From an archaeon (GTDB lineage: Archaea > Nanobdellota > Nanobdellia > Woesearchaeales > GW2011-AR9): a stretch of DNA of 64,000 nt. Where the stretch lies: positions 285,505-349,504 of the forward strand of contig JABHSG010000003.1 in NCBI GenBank assembly GCA_018697095.1, read 5' to 3'. Below the pieces are notes generated by a model that searched no databases, was not told the DNA's origin, and saw only the letters and a list, made by a program, of their open reading frames with translations. The translations under genes and the position numbers were made by a program. Position 1 is the first letter of the stretch. Every line of letters begins with the position of its first letter. Shown in pieces: positions 39,531 to 60,932 of this stretch.

Positions 39531-39629
39531 GCCCCGGTGGCTTAGCGGTTATAGCAGTCGGCTGTTATTCGTATTAATTCAATACGACAAGATACCGACA
39601 GATCGCCAGTTCAAATCTGGCCCGGGGCG
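39531..39629 (+). tRNA. tRNA-Asn (anticodon GUU) with ~26-nt intron in the anticodon loop
   Basis: Acceptor GCCCCGG/CCGGGGC; D arm GCU(U)-AGCGGUUA-(U)AGC; anticodon stem GUCGG...CCGAC with loop CUGUUA then a hairpin-containing intron; T arm GCCAG-UUCAAAU-CUGGC; discriminator G. Confidence 0.75.
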
Positions 39630-53016: not shown

Positions 53017-53973
53017 GTGGAAGAAAAAAATACTGATTCTAAAAATACATCTTCAGAGACTAACTCGCACTCTAAAGATCCTACTGCTCTGCGTTCAGAA
53101 CTTCGCGAATTACAATCACAATCATCTATTCTAAAAAAAGATTTATCTGCTTTGAATAAAAGTAAAGAAGAAGCTTACCGTGCTCTTAGGTCTTTAAAAG
53201 ATAAAATGAAAGCACGTAATCAAAAAATTCAAGATCTAAAAACAAAACGTAACGAGTTTTCAACTAAAGTAAAAGAAAACAAAGTTCAAAGAGACACATT
53301 AAACACTACTGTTAGAAAAACAGGTTCTCAAGTTCAAGATGTTAAAGATAAGTTTGGTGAAGACTCTCTTAAAACAGCACGTTCAAGTTCACATTCAAGT
53401 TCACGTGGGTATCAAAGAAGAAATAAAGAAAAGACTGCTCCTCAAATTAAAAAAGAGATAGAAGACTTAGAAACAAAAATTGAAACTGAGCCTATGCCTT
53501 TCTATAAAGAAAAAGAAATCAGAAAAACCATCAAAGAATTAGCATCAAAACTCAAAAAAATGCAAGTAAAAGTAACTGCGCAAGCAGTAGCTGGTGTTGC
53601 AGTAAAAGAGCATCATCATGCTCGTAAAAAAGCCCAAGTAGCTCATCAAAAAGTACAAGAGTTTGCAAAGTTAAGTCAAGAAAAACATGAAGAAATTAAT
53701 CTTGCACTAAGCGAAGTAAAAAACTTTCGTAAAGAAAAAGATAATTCTGCAAAAACTTATGGCGAACATAAAGATCAGTGGCAAGGCAAAAAAGAAGAGT
53801 TAGACAAGATTCAATTAAGAATTAAGGAATTAAAAGAAGCTCTTGGTGAAAAAAGTCAAGCAAATTTCAAGGAGCAATTAAAAGAACGTGCATCTGCAGC
53901 CCGCCAAAAATTAAAAACCGGTGGTAAACTAACTGTAGAAGACTTGTTAGCAATGCAAGCTTTAGATCCTTAA
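53017..53973 (+). CDS. Lys-rich coiled-coil protein of unknown function (GTG start)
   Basis: 318 aa with heptad-like charged repeats throughout; no catalytic motif. Confidence 0.5.
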   Translation: MEEKNTDSKNTSSETNSHSKDPTALRSELRELQSQSSILKKDLSALNKSKEEAYRALRSLKDKMKARNQKIQDLKTKRNEFSTKVKENKVQRDTLNTTVRKTGSQVQDVKDKFGEDSLKTARSSSHSSSRGYQRRNKEKTAPQIKKEIEDLETKIETEPMPFYKEKEIRKTIKELASKLKKMQVKVTAQAVAGVAVKEHHHARKKAQVAHQKVQEFAKLSQEKHEEINLALSEVKNFRKEKDNSAKTYGEHKDQWQGKKEELDKIQLRIKELKEALGEKSQANFKEQLKERASAARQKLKTGGKLTVEDLLAMQALDP

Positions 53974-54029
53974 GTTTTAAAATTTTCTTAAACTATTTTT
54001 TTAACACCTTTCAAAAATAACAATTATTC

Positions 54030-54578
54030 TCACAAGGCATCAAGCAAATCAGCTTTACTCACAAGTCCCACAATATCTCCTTTTTGCGAAACAAGTACGA
54101 TAGAATATTCTTTGAGCATTTCAACAATCATTTTCTGTCCAGTATTTATTGTCACAATCGGTGGGCATTCATCCATTACATCTTCAGCTTTCTTACTTCC
54201 AATGCTTGCTCCAAATTTTCCAATTGCTTCAAGAACTGCTCGCTCACTTACGACTCCTAAAACTCTAGATTTTTCGAGAACTGGGACTTGGGAGATCCCC
54301 TTCTTCTTCATCACACTTACTACATCAAGTAATTTATCACGCGCAGCGCAAAATACTACTTTTTTATTCATCAGTTGCTTTGCCTTTTTTTCATGTTTAC
54401 CATTCAATTCTTCAAGTGCTACAAATATTGCTTTGGCCTTACTAAAACTTGGTTCCAAATCACCTTTCTCTACTTTAGCAATCAGTGACTGCGAAACTCC
54501 TGAGGCCTCAGCCAATTCTTTTTGACTAAGTCCATAACGCCGACGCAAACTACGAATTTGTGATAAATCTTCTATCAT
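54030..54578 (-). CDS. XRE-type HTH plus CBS-pair domain regulator
   Basis: N-terminal HTH (YGLSQKELAEASGVSQSLIAKVEKG) followed by two CBS motifs. Confidence 0.8.
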   Translation of the reverse strand: MIEDLSQIRSLRRRYGLSQKELAEASGVSQSLIAKVEKGDLEPSFSKAKAIFVALEELNGKHEKKAKQLMNKKVVFCAARDKLLDVVSVMKKKGISQVPVLEKSRVLGVVSERAVLEAIGKFGASIGSKKAEDVMDECPPIVTINTGQKMIVEMLKEYSIVLVSQKGDIVGLVSKADLLDAL

Positions 54579-54697
54579 GTTACTACCAAAACGTCCTGTA
54601 TTTAATAATATTTCGCAAATAGGATTATTCGTATGGGAATATTCTAATCAAGAGCCTTTATAATGAAACAAGCTAAAAAACGCCTAAGTACAGTTCA

Positions 54698-54743
<46 letters not shown>

Positions 54744-54763
54744 AATAAACAGAGGCAATAACA

Positions 54764-55981
54764 ATGGCAAGAAAACAATTATTTACAAGTGAAAGTGTTA
54801 GTGAAGGACATCCAGATAAAATCTGTGATCAAATTAGTGATGCAATCTTAGATGAGATGCTTCGTCAGGACCCAGAATCCCGTGTAGCTGTTGAAACATT
54901 CACTAAAACTGGTTTTGTAGTAGTGGGTGGAGAAGTAACAACCAAAAGTTATGTTGACATTCAAAAAATAGTACGTGAAACAATTCTAGAGATCGGTTAC
55001 AACAAACCAGACTTTGGTTTTGAAGGTTCTACTTGTGGAGTACTTTCTGCAATTTCTGAGCAATCTCCAGACATCGCTCAAGGTGTTAACGAAGGCGAAG
55101 GTTTGCATGAAGAACAAGGAGCAGGAGATCAAGGTATGATGTTTGGTTATGCAACAAATGAAACACCAGAATTAATGCCACTTCCAATTACACTAGCACA
55201 CAAACTTACAGCGCGTCTAGCTTCAGCAAGAAAACGCGGGGAAATTTGGTATCTTCGCCCAGACGCTAAGGCTCAAGTAACTGTAGAGTATCTAGATGAC
55301 AAACCGGTACGCGTTGACACTGTTGTTTTATCAACTCAGCATCATCCTGACGTAGACTTAGAAACAATTCGTCGTGATATGGTTGAAAAAATCATTAAAC
55401 CAATTTGTGGATCATGGATTGATGATTCTACAAAATATTTTGTAAACCCAACTGGTAAATTCGTTATTGGTGGGCCAGTTGGAGATGCAGGTCTTACTGG
55501 ACGTAAAATTATTGTAGACACTTATGGTGGAATGGGTCGTCATGGTGGAGGAGCATTTTCTGGAAAAGATCCAAGTAAGGTTGATCGAAGTGCTGCTTAC
55601 GCAGCAAGGCACATTGCAAAAAATATTGTGGCAGCTGGCCTTGCGCAAAGATGTGAAGTCCAATTAGCTTACGCAATTGGTGTTGCTCAACCTGTATCAG
55701 TTCATATAGATTGTTTTGGAACTAGTACTATCTCTGAAGAAAAGATCAGTGAACTTGTATTAAAACATTTCAGCTTAACTCCAAAAGGAATTATTGATGG
55801 ATTAAATCTTAAAAGACCAATTTACAAAAAGACTGCAAGCTATGGTCATTTTGGTCGAAGTGATCCTGATTTTACTTGGGAAAAAACAGACAAAGCTGAT
55901 ATTTTGCGGCAAGGGGCAGCTAGTTTTCAAACACCAAGCGCAGAACCAATCAGCCAAGCACCAGAGCAACACAGTTTCTAG
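54764..55981 (+). CDS. metK: S-adenosylmethionine synthetase, bacterial/eukaryal (MetK) type
   Basis: [22 protein letters not shown]-terminus (GHPDK) and [19 protein letters not shown]; not the archaeal MAT family. Confidence 0.95.
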
Positions 55982-56041
55982 AAACTAAAATTTCATTATT
56001 TTTTTATTTTTATTTTTTCCAATTATTGACTCTTCCATAAA

Positions 56042-56803
56042 ATGTATACTTCAATTGATCCAAATGAACTTCAAAGTTTAGGAAAAGGTACTAGGGTTGT
56101 TTTAGATACTTCTTGGGCTATGGCTTATGTAGGTAGTGTAAATCCAAACAGGTATTGTGGAGGGAATTTCACTGCACCTCCGAAGGTTATTGCAGAATGT
56201 ATAGATCAAGGTATATCTCCTAGATTCCTTGAAGATGTTAGAAAAGTATCAATCTCTTATGATGGGCAGTCAGTTAAGCGTGAAAGAAAAATCATAAGGT
56301 CATTAGAAAGACATAGTGCAAAATATCTTGCTTATTCAGCTGCTTTAGATTGTGTTGAAGAATTTTTATATTTTGCAAGACGTGTTAATCAAAAAGGATT
56401 TCTTACATTAAAATCTGTTCAAAAAGAAGATCCAAGATGGCTTGGGAAAGAACAACGTTATGTTAGAAAATATTTTGATTTTGCATGTGAACGGCAAAAA
56501 CAAAGTAGTAAAGAACATTTGATTCGTCATGGAATGATTCATAGTTATGCTTCTTCTCCATTATATTTTAATGATCTTAAAAGAAAATTTATTGCAAGAG
56601 ATTTTGGAAGTGGTGGTGAAGAGCAAGCAAAATATTTTTTAACAAAACAAAGAAAATTAAGTGAGGCAGATCTTTCTGTTCTTTTAATAGCGGGAATCAT
56701 TGGTACAAACCCAGTTATTGCAACAAGCGACCATCAAATCATTGAAATTGCGGACCTTAGACGCAGGGTTTCTTCAAATTATTTAGAATCAATAGTTGAT
56801 TAA
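56042..56803 (+). CDS. uncharacterized protein with PIN-like terminal motifs (paralog A)
   Basis: N-terminal TRVVLDTSWAM and C-terminal IATSDHQIIEIADLRRR resemble PIN first and fourth acidic motifs; paralogous to the next gene. Confidence 0.45.
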   Translation: MYTSIDPNELQSLGKGTRVVLDTSWAMAYVGSVNPNRYCGGNFTAPPKVIAECIDQGISPRFLEDVRKVSISYDGQSVKRERKIIRSLERHSAKYLAYSAALDCVEEFLYFARRVNQKGFLTLKSVQKEDPRWLGKEQRYVRKYFDFACERQKQSSKEHLIRHGMIHSYASSPLYFNDLKRKFIARDFGSGGEEQAKYFLTKQRKLSEADLSVLLIAGIIGTNPVIATSDHQIIEIADLRRRVSSNYLESIVD

Positions 56804-56882
56804 CTCATAAAATCATGTCCTAAGCCATAATTAAGTGAAAATTTGTCATAATCTTTATATCTAAATGCTTTAAAAAGACTAA

Positions 56883-57794
56883 ATGTACAGTAGATTTAAT
56901 GGAAACAGTGCTATCAGAAATGTTTATACTAAAAAACCCAATGGGTCACCTGGGTCTACAAAACATGTAGTTTTAGATTCTTGCGTTTTAATAGGTAGTA
57001 ATATTAACTGGGTTTCAAATAAATTATCTTCTAAGAGTTTGTATGTAATTAATGGGGTGCGTGAAGAAGTAACTGTTCCTGATAATCTGGGAATAACTGA
57101 TTTTGATGCTGACCATGGTGTTTCAGAAAGAGTAAGATTAGAAAACGAAGTTCTAAAGGCCATCTCCTATGGTCTTGGTAAAACATTATTTCATCGTGCT
57201 GCCTTGCCATATCTTGATGAAATTGCTCCAATCATCTCAGGGATTTGTAATTCAGAAAAAAATATGGGTGGTAGGTTGCACGGGAGATTATTGTCTGCAA
57301 TTATAAGTCCAAATTCTGAACCAGGATTTGAAAGAAAGTATCATTCTGAATTCGCTTCATTAAGAGGAATTGTGGGACAAATAAAACAAAATGCCACTGA
57401 GTTTAAAGCAAAATTAAAAGGTCCATTTTGTGATCTTCTTGGGCTAAAACCATTTAAGTATGATCAGCACATGAGACAAATTAGAACTTTCGATCCTTCA
57501 TCTCTTTTTGAGACATTAATTACTTATGGTACATTAAGAGATTTTGATCTAGCAAAAGAAGTTTATCGAACTAAAAAAGGCTCTACTAGGTCAACAGATA
57601 GAAAAAATGTATTAGCAGCAGAAATGTTAGTACACACTACTGATTCTAAAGTTAATGTTTTATCAATAGATAAAGATATTCCTGAGATTGTGGATTTAAG
57701 AAAAAAATGCAGGATTGACTATGGCAGATTTGGAAGAAAAATAGCTGAGAGTTCTGTACGTGAAAGATTGGAAGAAGTTCTTAGGGCAGCATAG
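56883..57794 (+). CDS. uncharacterized protein with PIN-like terminal motifs (paralog B)
   Basis: N-terminal KHVVLDSCVLIGS and C-terminal LSIDKDIPEIVDLRKK; shares termini with 56042..56803. Confidence 0.45.
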   Translation: MYSRFNGNSAIRNVYTKKPNGSPGSTKHVVLDSCVLIGSNINWVSNKLSSKSLYVINGVREEVTVPDNLGITDFDADHGVSERVRLENEVLKAISYGLGKTLFHRAALPYLDEIAPIISGICNSEKNMGGRLHGRLLSAIISPNSEPGFERKYHSEFASLRGIVGQIKQNATEFKAKLKGPFCDLLGLKPFKYDQHMRQIRTFDPSSLFETLITYGTLRDFDLAKEVYRTKKGSTRSTDRKNVLAAEMLVHTTDSKVNVLSIDKDIPEIVDLRKKCRIDYGRFGRKIAESSVRERLEEVLRAA

Positions 57795-57903
57795 TTTATT
57801 CTAATATTTTAAAAAAAAAGTTTAACTGGTCTCAAATCTATTCTGATCTTTATCTTTTCATAACCAAAAGATATAAAACTAGTAAATCTTCAAAAATATA
57901 ATC

Positions 57904-58569
57904 ATGAAATACTCAGCAGCATTAACTAATATAGTAGCAGGAGCAGTTCTAGCAGCAACTCTAGCACCAAGTACTTCTATTGCTGGTGATGAATATCATA
58001 CAAACCCTTGTACTAATGGATACACTATTGTAACTTCTCAAGATGTCGTTGCTGCATATGATGCTGGAAAAAAAGAATTTTCTTGTATCAAGTTCGCAGA
58101 TACACACACGACATTTCAAAGATCTTTTAGTGGAAAAGATTTGTCAGGAATTAGACTTACAAATGTTTCTTTGCCAGGAGTAACTTTTGAAGAAGCAAAC
58201 CTTTCAGGTGGATATCTACAAGGAGATTTTGGCGCAACAACAAATGATACCTCTTTTCATGGAGCTAATCTTTCTGGTGCAACAGTTAAAGGGAATCTTA
58301 ATTTTGCAGATTTATCTAATACGAATTTAACTGGTACAAATTTAATTTATTCTAATTTAACTCACGCTGATTTAACTGATGCAACTGTGTCTTATGGCAC
58401 TAGGCTTCCAGCAGCTATGCTTTGCGTTAAATTAACCGGCATTAGGGGACTCAGGCCTCAAAGGGAAAGAAGAAATAATCCTCCAAAAAGAATAGAAACA
58501 GCATTAAGTGGAGTTACATGCCCAACAGGAATTCTAGTCCCTAGGACTCTTGAAGATACAGTACAATAA
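57904..58569 (+). CDS. secreted pentapeptide-repeat protein
   Basis: Signal peptide MKYSAALTNIVAGAVLAATLAPSTSIAG; tandem A(D/N)LxG-type pentapeptide repeats (ANLSGGYLQGDFGATT...ADLSNTNLTGTNLIYSNLTHADLTDATV). Confidence 0.7.
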   Translation: MKYSAALTNIVAGAVLAATLAPSTSIAGDEYHTNPCTNGYTIVTSQDVVAAYDAGKKEFSCIKFADTHTTFQRSFSGKDLSGIRLTNVSLPGVTFEEANLSGGYLQGDFGATTNDTSFHGANLSGATVKGNLNFADLSNTNLTGTNLIYSNLTHADLTDATVSYGTRLPAAMLCVKLTGIRGLRPQRERRNNPPKRIETALSGVTCPTGILVPRTLEDTVQ

Positions 58570-58594
58570 TAACTTTCTAGAAAAAAATATTTAT

Positions 58595-59086
58595 TCACTG
58601 CTGATTTTCTTTTTTCATCTTGTCATGTTCACGAAGCCACATTAAACCAACTTTAATCATAACTTTATTGAACCGATCTGAAACGCGATATGTTTTTTTA
58701 TACATATCATAATCAATTAAACCTAAACTTTTCATTGGAGTTAATATCCGATCATAAAACTGACGCCTATTATACGAAACTCGTTGTTCTTTACTCATTG
58801 GCCCTCTTGCTTCAGATAGAACTACTTTTCCTTCATGCAAATTTGTTGCAAATAGGCTCATTTCAGTTTTGCCAATTTCTCCTTCATTTGCCATCATGTG
58901 CTTTAGAAGGAGTTTACCTACAATCTCTTGCTGTTCTGTTGCAAAGATTACTTTGTAGATATCTTCGGGCATATTGTATAGATCAAAGAGGATAACCATA
59001 CATAAATAATAGAAAAACGCTATATAAATGTTACCTAATCGTATACTAAACTGGCCTAAGGTGACATGATAGTCAAAATAAACCAC
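58595..59086 (-). CDS. hypothetical protein (true start possibly the internal MPEDIYK near 58972)
   Basis: ORF only; no motif. Confidence 0.4.
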   Translation of the reverse strand: MVYFDYHVTLGQFSIRLGNIYIAFFYYLCMVILFDLYNMPEDIYKVIFATEQQEIVGKLLLKHMMANEGEIGKTEMSLFATNLHEGKVVLSEARGPMSKEQRVSYNRRQFYDRILTPMKSLGLIDYDMYKKTYRVSDRFNKVMIKVGLMWLREHDKMKKENQQ

Positions 59087-59095
59087 TAAGAAGTC

Positions 59096-59425
59096 TCAAA
59101 TCAACCAAGCATCTGGCCTATTATATTGTAATACAAGGTCAAGATTTTCAGGTTCAACAGGGCAATAATGCATATGGCTATCTGGATTATTGTCTGGGCA
59201 CCCTTCAACATAGGGTTCTGGTGCTCCTTCACAAATACCTTCAGGATCATATGATCTAAATTCTGTCACTGGCCCACATTCGAATGCTGGTCTAAACTGT
59301 TCTGCATCACTATAACAAGCAGGAAGTCCCAAAGAAAAAACCACTCCTCTAACTAATCTGTCTATGCTCATACTACTTTTCATAACCGAATTATTATAAA
59401 GCTGCTGACAAATAATACAACACAT
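59096..59425 (-). CDS. small Cys/Pro-rich hypothetical protein (true start probably internal, about 59383)
   Basis: The ORF's first codon overlaps the divergent radical-SAM start, so an internal Met (MKSSMSIDRL) is more plausible; 6 Cys. Confidence 0.35.
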   Translation of the reverse strand: MCCIICQQLYNNSVMKSSMSIDRLVRGVVFSLGLPACYSDAEQFRPAFECGPVTEFRSYDPEGICEGAPEPYVEGCPDNNPDSHMHYCPVEPENLDLVLQYNRPDAWLI

Positions 59426-60932
59426 GCATTATACTATCCTTGACTGTTATACTGATGAAGCATCAGGCCTAGGTGTTCCACCATACTTAGGGACCTATCC
59501 AAGATACCTTTACGCAAAACTCAAACATGATTATCCTAAAGCTACAATCTCATATCTAACTATCGATGACCTAAGACTTTGGAAAAAATACAAAGGTAAA
59601 ATCAAACCAACAACTACTAAAGATACAACTAATCTGAAAATATACAACTTAACAAATAACAGCGCAAAAGAAATAATTAAATCTACAAATAAATTGTTCA
59701 TCGTTTTAGGAGTTCACGTTCCAGGAAAATACCTAAGTGCACTCCCAGGTACAATCAAAGAACTTCTTCCATTAATTAAAGATATTAGAAAAACAAAAGT
59801 ACTAACAGGTCCAGCAATTTACGGAACCCAACTAGAAGGTGGAAAGTTTGCCGAAATTCTCTCTTCAAAACAGCAAGGCCAATTAAATATTCAATTAGAA
59901 GAATATAATCAATCTTTTGAAGAGTTAGCTACATACGCACATCTTGGTGCAGAATTACTAACTCAAATCCCTCAGCGTAGAATTATTGAAATTGAAACTG
60001 GACGTGGTTGCAAAGTTGGTAAATGTTCATTTTGTACAGAACCACTAAAATCAAGATTTCAAAACAGACCAAATGAAGACATTCTAAAAGAAGTGAAGGC
60101 GTACTACGAAGCTGGAGCTAGGTTCTTCAGACTTGGAAAACAAGCGGATTTTTACGCTAGTGAAGACCCAATCAACTTACTCAAAGAAATAAATAAACAT
60201 TGTCCTGATTTAGAAATGCTGCACATTGATAATGTTAATCCAAATAGTGTGGTCGCTGATAAAGATCACGCCATTACAAAAGCCATTGTAAAATACTGCA
60301 CAGAAGGAAACATCGCAGCTTTTGGTGTAGAATCATTCGACCCAGATGTAGTTAAAGCAAATCTTCTAAATACACATCCAATTATTGCACGTAAAGCAAT
60401 TGAAATAATTAACCAGTATGGGGCAGTTCGAGGCAAGAATGGGCTTCACAAATATCTCCCAGGAATCAATATCATCTTCGGTCTTCTAAAAGAAACAAAG
60501 ACTTCCCATAAACTCAACATAGCGGCCCTCCAAAAATGTTTAGATAATAACTTACTCTTACGACGAATCAACGTACGTCAAGTTGCGGTTCTGCCTGATA
60601 CCTTTCTAGAAAAACATGGTGGTAACAAGTACTTACGAAAAAACAAACACCTTTATTGGAAATGGAGAAACCAAATTCGTCAAGAGATTGATTCACCAAT
60701 GCTAAAACGTTTATTTCCAATTGGAACAATTCTAACAGATGTCTACACTGAGATTTATGATGGGTACACAACCTTTGGAAGGCAAATGGGGACTTATCCT
60801 ATTGTTATCGGTATTCCTCACAAGGACAAAGAAACAGGCAAACCCAAAAGAATTCCTCTAAACAAAAAAATAAAAGTAAGAATCACAGCTCATATGCTTA
60901 GGTCAATCACCGCAGAATTAGTGGAAGAATAG
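59424..60932 (+). CDS. radical-SAM-like Fe-S enzyme with non-canonical Cx4Cx2C cluster motif
   Basis: IEIETGRGCKVGKCSFCTEP lies where radical SAM enzymes carry CxxxCxxC; a GGE-like region sits downstream; 502 aa. Confidence 0.55.
   Translation: MHYTILDCYTDEASGLGVPPYLGTYPRYLYAKLKHDYPKATISYLTIDDLRLWKKYKGKIKPTTTKDTTNLKIYNLTNNSAKEIIKSTNKLFIVLGVHVPGKYLSALPGTIKELLPLIKDIRKTKVLTGPAIYGTQLEGGKFAEILSSKQQGQLNIQLEEYNQSFEELATYAHLGAELLTQIPQRRIIEIETGRGCKVGKCSFCTEPLKSRFQNRPNEDILKEVKAYYEAGARFFRLGKQADFYASEDPINLLKEINKHCPDLEMLHIDNVNPNSVVADKDHAITKAIVKYCTEGNIAAFGVESFDPDVVKANLLNTHPIIARKAIEIINQYGAVRGKNGLHKYLPGINIIFGLLKETKTSHKLNIAALQKCLDNNLLLRRINVRQVAVLPDTFLEKHGGNKYLRKNKHLYWKWRNQIRQEIDSPMLKRLFPIGTILTDVYTEIYDGYTTFGRQMGTYPIVIGIPHKDKETGKPKRIPLNKKIKVRITAHMLRSITAELVEE

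Follow-up and report, generated by a model that had tools for sequence, protein, structure and literature searches.

Two candidate PIN-like proteins and a pentapeptide-repeat protein in a variable slot beside metK in a woesearchaeal genome

[quoted passage not shown] The superfamily includes many small, archaeal-only families of unknown function, for example PIN_27 and PIN_28, which contain eight sequences each (PMC5499597). In HARP, the PIN-like metallonuclease core (a PIN_5 domain) is interrupted by a helical insert, an inserted two-helix domain which serves dimerisation and substrate handling (PMC8266387).

This paper describes three neighbouring genes, designated A, B and PRP (pentapeptide-repeat protein), in a stretch of 64,000 nucleotides of archaeal DNA (the window). 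The three genes are co-directional, with spacers of 79 bp between A and B and 109 bp between B and PRP, and A is separated from the upstream metK gene by 60 bp. All three lie inside a variable slot bounded by metK and a 134-aa gene (Table 1). The ORF calls agree exactly with the coordinates and lengths given for the three genes in an earlier, sequence-only reading of this DNA, which had described A and B as paralogous proteins resembling PIN or NYN nucleases and the PRP as their secreted and possibly functional neighbour. The order and local context of the four acidic motifs in A and B are those of the VapC-like structural group of PIN domains (PMC5499597), and both proteins are likewise basic. 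However, about 100-120 extra residues before H4 make A and B two to 2.3 times as large as a typical domain of 130 aa, and no significant profile match was obtained for either. They also differ from VapBC, in which the toxin has about 130 aa compared with 253 and 303 aa here and follows a small antitoxin gene that overlaps or abuts it. No VapB-like antitoxin gene was found upstream; the metK-A and A-B spacers contain no ORF of at least 60 aa, and there was no PADLOC match.

We tentatively favour the reading that A, B and PRP are lineage-restricted accessory genes, of which B is PIN-like, A is a duplicate of B and the PRP is a separate, exported protein. They would be fast-evolving accessory genes occupying a metK-adjacent slot in marine Woesearchaeota (DPANN archaea).

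Table 1. Features of the locus, in positions of the window
Feature	Positions	Strand	Description	Basis or remark
metK	54764..55981	+	bacterial-type SAM synthetase; left border of the slot	Pfam domain annotation
Gene A	56042..56803	+	253 aa, pI 9.3, orphan	ORF
A motif 1	56096..56113	+	VVLDTS (D22); S1-like strand and Asp	PIN regex
A motif 2	56183..56200	+	KVIAEC (E52)	alignment A1, invariant columns V59 and E62
A motifs 3 and 4	56660..56767	+	SEADLSVLLIAG (D210), VIATSDHQIIEIADLRRR (D230)	hhalign
TATA-like box	56854..56860	+	TTTATAT	29 bp upstream of the B start codon
Gene B	56883..57794	+	303 aa, pI 9.4	ORF
B motif 1	56964..56987	+	HVVLDSCV (D32)	alignment A3; hhalign to PhNob1 S1
B motif 2	57039..57071	+	LYVINGVREEV (E62)	alignment A3
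B motifs 3 and 4	57585..57707	+	TRSTDRKNVLAAEMLV (D239), VNVLSIDKDIPEIVDLRKK (D263, D265)	alignment A3
PRP	57904..58569	+	221 aa, pentapeptide-repeat protein	ORF and Pfam PF00805
134-aa gene	58595..58999	-	conserved; right border of the slot	longest ORF extends to 59086

Acidic motifs of A and B and the comparison with PIN nucleases

The motifs on which the sequence-only reading was based, VVLDT (A) and VVLDS (B) near the N-terminus and TSDHQIIEIADLRRR and SIDKDIPEIVDLRKK near the C-terminus, are all present as described. Two further elements absent from that reading were also identified, an S2-like 'V..E' motif (E52 in A and E62 in B) and a helix start of the form 'D..(V/L)L.A' (D210 in A and D239 in B). 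The four PIN-like motifs are collinear in the two proteins, with D22, E52, D210 and D230 in A and D32, E62, D239 and D263/D265 in B. The distance from the first Asp to the S2-like Glu is exactly 30 residues in each protein, and about 100 (A) and about 120 (B) extra residues are located between motifs 2 and 3. Both A and B therefore carry the four acidic motifs of the PIN superfamily at the level of sequence motifs only, and these motifs would correspond to S1, S2, H4 and S4.

Searches of 1.84 billion representatives and of 5.8 billion clusters identified only two homologues of B, P0003 (32% identity) and P0004 (27%), and both are at the syntenic position of B. An exhaustive HMMER search returned one homologue, a profile search returned one more and a word-indexed search returned B itself only. 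A profile of the B family identified no further related loci in GTDB genomes, JGI metagenomes or IMG/VR, and no divergent relatives of A or B were present among the slot ORFs of 10 GTDB loci or 80 JGI loci. The four acidic positions of B are invariant in its two homologues (27-32% identical), an invariance of little weight in a family of three sequences. In alignment A3 the invariant residues are V30, L31, D32, C34 and V35 in motif 1, G58, V59 and E62 in motif 2, and T235-K241, L244-A246, S261, D263, D265 and I266 in motifs 3 and 4. The population variant P0002 of B lacks LSIDKDI. One contig (L009) was considered as a strain without B and was set aside as unreliable.

The specificity of these motifs was examined with a generic pair of PIN regular expressions, which places motif 1 within the first 60 aa and motif 4 within the last 60 aa. 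The pair was composed only after the sequences of A and B had been seen. In 263 kb from related genomes, with 263 ORFs that reach 150 aa, it occurs only in A, B and the two orthologues of B, and would be expected 0.12 times. Another 500 kb with 412 ORFs did not contain the pair, and the single motifs had frequencies of 1.2% and 1.5%. These frequencies give an estimated chance of about 2e-4 that one ORF contains both motifs. In total, about 760 kb of related DNA with 675 ORFs (150 aa or longer) were scanned, and the pair was seen in no protein other than A and the members of the B family.

In contrast to the motifs, profile searches did not place A or B in a known family. Neither protein matched the profiles of Pfam, NCBIfam, PADLOC, PHROG or the PDB at any threshold that was reported. 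In Pfam, no match with E up to 10 was obtained for A, B, P0003, P0004 or spliced cores from which the insert had been removed, and neither A nor B matched a profile of the PIN clan (PIN, PIN_2 to PIN_12, NYN and others). When the PDB was searched with hmmsearch and a profile of the spliced B core, a spurious match (E=0.14) was the only one obtained. The archaeal Nob1 of P. horikoshii (PhNob1, PDB 2LCQ), picked post hoc as an hhalign target, was matched by A and B with probabilities of 1-4% and P=0.01-0.05, which are not significant. The best match of B aligns residues 27-38 with S1 of Nob1 (58% identity over 12 columns, P=0.011-0.015), and the best match of A aligns residues 204-239 with PhNob1 residues 72-105, which cover H4-S4 (LSEADLSVLLIA compared with LSKADIEVLALA; 35% identity, P=0.054). 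Weak as they are, these matches fall on homologous elements. A custom VapC profile built from 30 IMG/VR sequences did not match the A or B cores in hhalign; this test was without power because it also missed the positive control, PhNob1, whose PIN domain is bona fide. No PIN or Nob1 genes that could provide a better profile were found in the related loci examined. The AlphaFold models (pLDDT 34 and 48) were too poor for a test of the fold. In the AF2 model of B helices predominate; they are predicted across residues 82-229 (pLDDT 38-80), and the helical middle is its sole moderately confident region.

The negative profile and structure searches, the VapC result and the helix-dominated model of B would all be expected if A and B were mostly alpha-helical orphans of another fold, without kinship to nucleases, and if the likeness to PIN domains were a coincidence; short 'hhhD(S/T)' and '(S/T)xD' strings would then simply be recurrent in the basic proteins of a low-GC genome. 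We consider this unlikely, though worth taking seriously. Coincidence would have to produce four motifs in the right order and context, invariant in the B family, a regular-expression pair found in 0/671 other ORFs, and best matches to the Nob1 PIN domain on homologous elements. In addition, the VapC test carries no weight against kinship, and the negative Pfam outcome is weakened by the HMMER filters and the extreme divergence of A and B. The likeness to PIN or NYN nucleases claimed in the sequence-only reading thus stands as regards four collinear acidic motifs in PIN order and context, and fails as regards profiles, with no match to PIN, NYN or HARP. We regard A and B as a probable PIN-like family of accessory genes that evolves fast and is restricted to its lineage, and their motifs are suggestive of a PIN fold and nuclease activity.

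The PIN domain of eukaryotic Nob1 is also interrupted by a large insertion; however, that insertion lies between H4 and S4, whereas in A and B it lies before H4. A and B further differ from Nob1 in having no C-terminal zinc ribbon, which in Nob1 has two CxxC pairs, with no CxxC pair in either sequence, and in not being universal in their clade. The candidate core of A and B, like that of HARP, would be interrupted by an inserted helical domain. However, HARP is a protein of about 23 kDa whose insert consists of just two helices, A and B gave no PIN_5 match, and A and B are accessory and missing from close relatives rather than housekeeping. The signature of the NYN (LabA-like) nucleases is 'SGDSDFxPLxxxLR', which motif 4 of the B family ('LLSxDSDIxxLRRLR') resembles. 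However, no match to PF01936 was found, and motif 1 of A and B does not have the 'DxxN' form.

In the reading of A, B and PRP as accessory genes, B would be the founder of a tiny, highly divergent PIN-like family. In its core, S1 would end at Asp32 and S2 would be followed by Glu62, an insert of about 120 residues (predicted helical, with low confidence) would come next, H4 would start from Asp239 and S4 would end at Asp263/Asp265. The acidic residues may bind Mg2+ or Mn2+ and cleave RNA. The helical insert could function in substrate recognition or oligomerisation, by analogy with the two-helix insert of HARP and the arch of FEN nucleases. If the PIN-like reading is true, a superfamily with more than 70 clusters gains a further archaeal family that is small and extremely divergent, and the position of its insert would be unusual. 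A more ambitious proposal, which we put forward as doubtful, is an unrecognised PIN-like nuclease architecture in which a helical domain of about 100-120 aa splits a minimal catalytic core before the crossover helix. It would occur only within a narrow group of marine Woesearchaeota, which are episymbiotic archaea, would be tandem-duplicated in one species and possibly heterodimeric, and would be located in a metK-adjacent hot spot of genes for accessory functions, defence or interaction with the host.

Relationship of A to B

The description of A and B as paralogues did not gain statistical support, as their similarity is significant by no alignment statistic. Pairwise BLASTP gave E=4.6, and the Smith-Waterman score was equalled by 64/500 shuffles. 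A scored -0.5 bits with the B-family HMM. Alignment of A with the B-family profile by hhalign gave E=0.22 and a probability of 0.3%, and the C-terminal stretch of motifs 3-4 was the sole part of A that aligned. A four-block motif test between A and B gave p=0.012, with A third among real proteins and equalled by two unrelated ones. Global alignment of A with B gave z=3.6, which was reached by 6/3000 shuffles, and 2/71 unrelated control proteins had z of at least 3. The corresponding alignment of A with the orthologues of B gave z=-0.3. That A is nearer to B than to its orthologues is as expected for a lineage-specific duplicate. A and B also have in common an EI.DLR(R/K)(R/K) patch that is not kept in the orthologues of B. 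Recent gene conversion was rejected as the origin of this patch because synonymous differences are present in most of the aligned codons, and recent horizontal transfer of A and B was rejected because their GC3 is host-like.

A itself is an orphan. The word-indexed search of 5.8 billion protein clusters matched A only to itself, no match was found in IMG/VR, and A was found neither in the syntenic relatives L011-L023 nor in 80 metagenome loci. It is confined to the lineage in which B is present, adjoining B on the same strand. The absence of any homologue in these searches, the HMM, hhalign and orthologue scores given above, and the unrelated cargo that the slot takes in other genomes would be accounted for if B alone were PIN-like and A were an unrelated orphan, acquired or formed de novo in the same hot spot, with motif matches due to chance or convergence. 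This is unlikely in our view, given that A contains both regular-expression motifs (by chance about 2e-4 per ORF), has the same D-to-E spacing as B, matches the Nob1 PIN domain best in its H4-S4 stretch, and is next to B in the same orientation. Paralogy of A and B is plausible but unproven. Under the favoured reading, A would most likely be a tandem duplicate of B that arose in this lineage only and then diverged until only the catalytic motifs and the C-terminal patch could still be recognised.

The pentapeptide-repeat protein

The third gene is a pentapeptide-repeat protein, as had been read from its sequence, with a match to Pfam PF00805, the family of tandem A(D/N)LXX repeats, of 59.7 bits (gathering cut-off 20.2, E=2e-16). 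The signal peptide that had been attributed to it may correspond to an N-terminal hydrophobic leader present in the PRP and all five orthologues, which in the PRP covers residues about 6-20, with possible cleavage after SIA. The PRP has four Cys residues, of which C36 and C61 are invariant in 6/6 orthologues, and further Cys residues are present in most. The leader and the conserved cysteines make export likelier than a role as a DNA-mimic partner. Some pentapeptide-repeat proteins, such as Qnr and MfpA, are DNA mimics. In NCBIfam, the PRP scored 12-18 bits with the Qnr/MfpA models, whose cut-offs are 240-500, and likewise did not reach the HetL cut-off. Thus, the suggestion of DNA mimicry was not borne out, and from its sequence features the PRP is probably exported and extracytoplasmic rather than a cytoplasmic DNA mimic.

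It is very improbable that A, B and PRP form one module, such as a nuclease pair with a DNA-mimic regulator or inhibitor or a toxin-immunity set, for several reasons. First, the three genes are adjacent and co-directional and B adjoins PRP in three genomes; however, these genomes are closely related and their synteny is fully conserved, which means that the adjacency is not independent. Secondly, L013, L014 and L019 have the PRP but not B. Third, although some pentapeptide-repeat proteins are DNA mimics, the PRP has a leader and conserved cysteines that point to export and reaches only 15-18 bits against the Qnr/MfpA cut-offs. In addition, there was no match to a PADLOC defence system. Lastly, the 79-109 bp spacers hold TATA-like boxes upstream of B and PRP, with that of the PRP about 30 bp upstream. 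The TTTATAT string upstream of B is a possible promoter of its own, read against a background of 2.8 such strings per kb per strand. The functional trio is not supported. In the favoured reading, the PRP would be an exported beta-helix protein, transcribed separately, which has the slot but not a function in common with A and B.

The slot between metK and the 134-aa gene

The junction between metK and the 134-aa gene is a recurrent variable slot in Woesearchaeota. In related genomes it is empty or contains the PRP only, a membrane protein and the PRP, B and the PRP, or RadC/MazEF cargo; it is empty or PRP-only in L013, L017, L022 and seven JGI loci. Its borders are conserved, as metK is 75-86% identical in related loci and the 134-aa gene is 63-82% identical across GTDB and Logan loci and 57-75% identical across 80 JGI loci. 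The 134-aa gene had no family match in Pfam or NCBIfam.

A housekeeping role of A and/or B in RNA processing, as a HARP-like protein-only RNase P or a Nob1 substitute, would suit the two-helix insertion in the PIN_5 domain of HARP (PMC8266387), the weak best matches to Nob1 and the L1-L10-P1 ribosomal-protein cluster 3 kb upstream, and is hardly credible given that A and B are missing in equally close relatives with the empty or PRP-only slots listed above, that only three family members were found among about 15 billion proteins, that no PIN_5 or Nob1 profile match and no zinc ribbon were detected, and that rare population variants lack motif 4 or the 5' end.

The findings on A, B and PRP settle no open question, and a nuclease-PRP module is unsupported. 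The more useful result is the slot, which may be used as a landmark when DPANN genomes are mined for accessory and defence cargo. B and PRP are the fastest-evolving genes of this neighbourhood. For example, B and PRP are 31% and 27% identical to their counterparts in L011, compared with 86% for metK, 82% for the 134-aa gene and 70% for a radical-SAM gene.

Acidic motifs and the candidate PIN fold of A and B

The two adjoining orphan genes A and B (NCBI "hypothetical protein HOC01_03265/03260 [archaeon]") and the pentapeptide-repeat protein (PRP) gene 3' of B matched exactly the three open reading frames of the sequence-only reading. The N- and C-terminal acidic motifs quoted there for A and B were present, and two further motifs were found in addition. 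In an alignment of the B family (B and its two homologues, P0003 and P0004; n=3, 27-32% identity), the invariant columns fall in four blocks, to which the motifs of A are collinear.

Conserved blocks of the B family and their counterparts in A
Block	B family	Acidic residue in B	A	Acidic residue in A
1	(V/L)VLD(S/T)CV	D32	VVLDTS	D22
2	L(Y/F)(V/I)..GV..E	E62	KVIAEC	E52
3	TRSTDRK..LAA	D239	SEADLSVLLIA	D210
4	(L/M)S.D.DI	D263 + D265	IATSDHQI	D230

The first Asp and the Glu are separated by 30 residues in both proteins. The Glu and the next Asp lie 158 residues apart in A and 177 apart in B; in two minimal PIN domains, those of Shigella VapC and P. horikoshii Nob1 (PhNob1), they are about 55 apart. 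The difference implies about 100-120 extra residues ahead of helix H4. B residues 82-229 are helical in a low-confidence AF2 model. In 263 kb of related genomes, with 263 ORFs of 150 aa or longer, a generic PIN pattern pair (motif 1 within 60 aa of the N-terminus, motif 4 within 60 aa of the C-terminus) matched A, B, P0003 and P0004 and no other ORF (0.12 expected). It was absent from all 412 ORFs of a further, independent 500 kb, in which the single motifs had frequencies of 1.2% and 1.5%. Since the pattern was composed after the sequences had been seen, its rarity supports a PIN-like pattern but does not prove it.

The claim of a PIN-like nuclease stands in part. In its favor, the acidic motifs are collinear and are invariant in the B family. 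In addition, weak hhalign matches to PhNob1 (PDB 2LCQ, sequence verified) on corresponding elements were the only positive fold signals: B 27-38 with strand S1 (58% identity, P=0.011-0.015) and A 204-239 with H4-S4 (35% identity, P=0.054). Against it, A, B and the orthologues had no match in Pfam, NCBIfam, PADLOC, PHROGs or PDB sequence searches, nor did A and B with the insert spliced out. AF2 models reached a pLDDT of 34 for A by itself and of 48 for B when its two homologues were included. Neither A nor B was picked up by a custom VapC profile built from 30 sequences, but this test had no power, since the true PIN domain of PhNob1 escaped it as well. A and B most likely represent a further very small and rapidly evolving PIN-like family, housed in an accessory slot of DPANN archaea.

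As a whole, the following mechanism is tentative, and we hold it with somewhat less than even confidence. B, and probably A, would be divergent PIN-like Mg2+/Mn2+ endoribonucleases with a split catalytic core, built from the N-terminal 80-100 and C-terminal 60-70 residues, and a helical insert that would help to select substrates or to form oligomers, as suggested by analogy to the insertion of eukaryotic Nob1, the spike-helix domain of HARP (PMC8266387) and the arch of FEN nucleases (PMC5499597). We infer the fold and the activity, as well as a duplication linking A and B. Separately, P0002, a population variant of B on one JGI contig, carries an in-frame 7-aa deletion of LSIDKDI (B residues 260-266) that removes precisely the stretch proposed as the S4 catalytic motif; either a rare allele or an error of assembly could account for it.

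Kinship of A and B

A and B had been proposed as paralogues, yet every standard similarity statistic fell short of significance. BLASTP gave E=4.6, the local alignment score was equalled by 64 of 500 shuffles, A scored -0.5 bits on the B-family HMM, and hhalign against the B-family profile aligned the C-terminal motif alone (E=0.22). The four-block ordered motif score of A had p=0.012 against 20,000 shuffles, and two unrelated real proteins equalled or exceeded it. Global alignment gave z=3.6 for A with B (6 of 3000 shuffles) and z=-0.3 for A with B's orthologues; a z of at least 3 was also reached by 2 of 71 unrelated control proteins. A is thus closer to its neighbor than to B's orthologues and was found only in the window lineage, both of which fit a duplication within this lineage and very rapid divergence thereafter. 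B shares 31% identity with its orthologue in L011, compared with 86% for metK. We place homology of A and B at roughly even odds, and their paralogy is unproven. The shared patch EI.DLR(R/K)(R/K) is not kept in B's orthologues, and recent gene conversion was ruled out as its origin because the codons differ at most synonymous sites.

A variable slot downstream of metK

Only two B homologues were found among 1.84 billion representatives and 5.8 billion clusters. The word-indexed cluster search returned none for A, and searches of JGI metagenomes, IMG/VR and GTDB species genomes found nothing related. The locus order shared with both B homologues is L1-L10-P1-DUF7121-(HTH-CBS)-metK-[B]-PRP-(134-aa gene)-radical SAM, with a single PIN-like gene at the B position in the P0003 and P0004 loci.

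Coordinates of features (window positions unless a locus is named)
Feature	Position	Strand	Length
tRNA	39531-39629	+	99 nt
SAM synthetase (metK)	54764-55981	+	
Slot, metK to 134-aa gene	55982-58594		
A	56042-56803		253 aa
B	56883-57794		303 aa
Interval between L009 and L151 breaks	56858-57014		
P0002 deletion	57660-57680		7 aa
PRP	57904-58569		221 aa
134-aa gene (ORF reaching 59086)	58595-58999	-	134 aa
502-aa protein	59424-60932	+	502 aa
Substitute at B position, L014	5333-6385	-	
Substitute at B position, L019	4162-5316	-	

With the flanking genes as landmarks, the slot contains A, B and PRP in the window, B and PRP in L011 and L012, PRP only in L013, an unrelated membrane protein and PRP in L014 and L019, RadC and unknowns in L015 and L016, and the same with MazE/MazF in L023; it is empty in L017 and L022. 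Among 80 further JGI loci with the 134-aa gene, none held relatives of A, B or PRP, and metK directly abuts that gene in seven. Among Woesearchaeota this interval recurs as a variable slot, possibly a hot spot at which accessory or defence genes integrate. Because its contents vary among relatives, A and B behave as accessory cargo, a pattern that speaks against a housekeeping function such as that of a HARP-like RNase P or a Nob1 substitute. GC3 of both genes resembles that of the host and thus shows no sign of recent transfer.

The L014 and L019 substitutes (350-384 aa) carry a transmembrane segment at the N-terminus together with serine-rich acidic regions, with no Pfam match and no similarity to A or B. 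The 134-aa gene, convergent with PRP, is strongly conserved and clade-specific (57-82% identity across >90 Woesearchaeota loci), and its product has no Pfam or NCBIfam match. In two contigs from sample ERZ508555, breaks flank the putative promoter of B and its first 44 codons. The match of L009 to the window is limited to 53196-56858, after which this contig, foreign at both ends, runs into a foreign minimal nucleotidyltransferase gene; L151 has 258 foreign bases at its start and matches the window from 57014 onward. These may represent a strain with a B-disrupting insertion or chimeric low-coverage assemblies.

The pentapeptide-repeat neighbor and the surrounding genes

PRP is a genuine pentapeptide-repeat protein (PF00805, 2e-16), far under every named NCBIfam subfamily cut-off, Qnr and MfpA included. 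Of the signal peptide ascribed to it, a hydrophobic segment of about 15 residues is present at the start of all six orthologues. Two N-terminal Cys positions are invariant in 6/6, and total Cys is four or six in 5/6; from these features we infer that PRP is probably exported. A nuclease/DNA-mimic module is unsupported, since PRP occurs without B in three genomes and B-PRP adjacency is confined to close relatives with wholly conserved synteny. The sequence-only reading was sound as an observation and over-interpreted: paralogy is unproven and a functional trio unsupported.

The spacers are 60 bp (metK-A), 79 bp (A-B) and 109 bp (B-PRP). TATA-like boxes 29 bp 5' of B and 32 bp 5' of PRP hint, weakly because such strings recur at about 2.8 per kb, that each may have its own promoter.

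The window (GC about 35%, archaeal DNA) also contains an L1-L10-P1 ribosomal-protein cluster, a TrmB regulator and a bacterial-type metK; judged by the neighboring HTH-CBS gene, its nearest genomes are Woesearchaeota/Nanoarchaeia MAGs of marine and groundwater origin. The MetK is the bacterial/eukaryotic three-domain enzyme (S-AdoMet_synt N, M, C), not the archaeal type, and shares 65-86% identity with counterparts in related DPANN loci. The tRNA, the sole Rfam match in the window, probably contains an intron because its span exceeds the 71-position model. The 502-aa protein shares 69-71% identity among relatives with a called orthologue and has sub-threshold radical-SAM matches only (Pfam 25.6 bits, cut-off 29.5; weak B12-rSAM/MiaB-like matches in NCBIfam); it may be a divergent radical-SAM enzyme.
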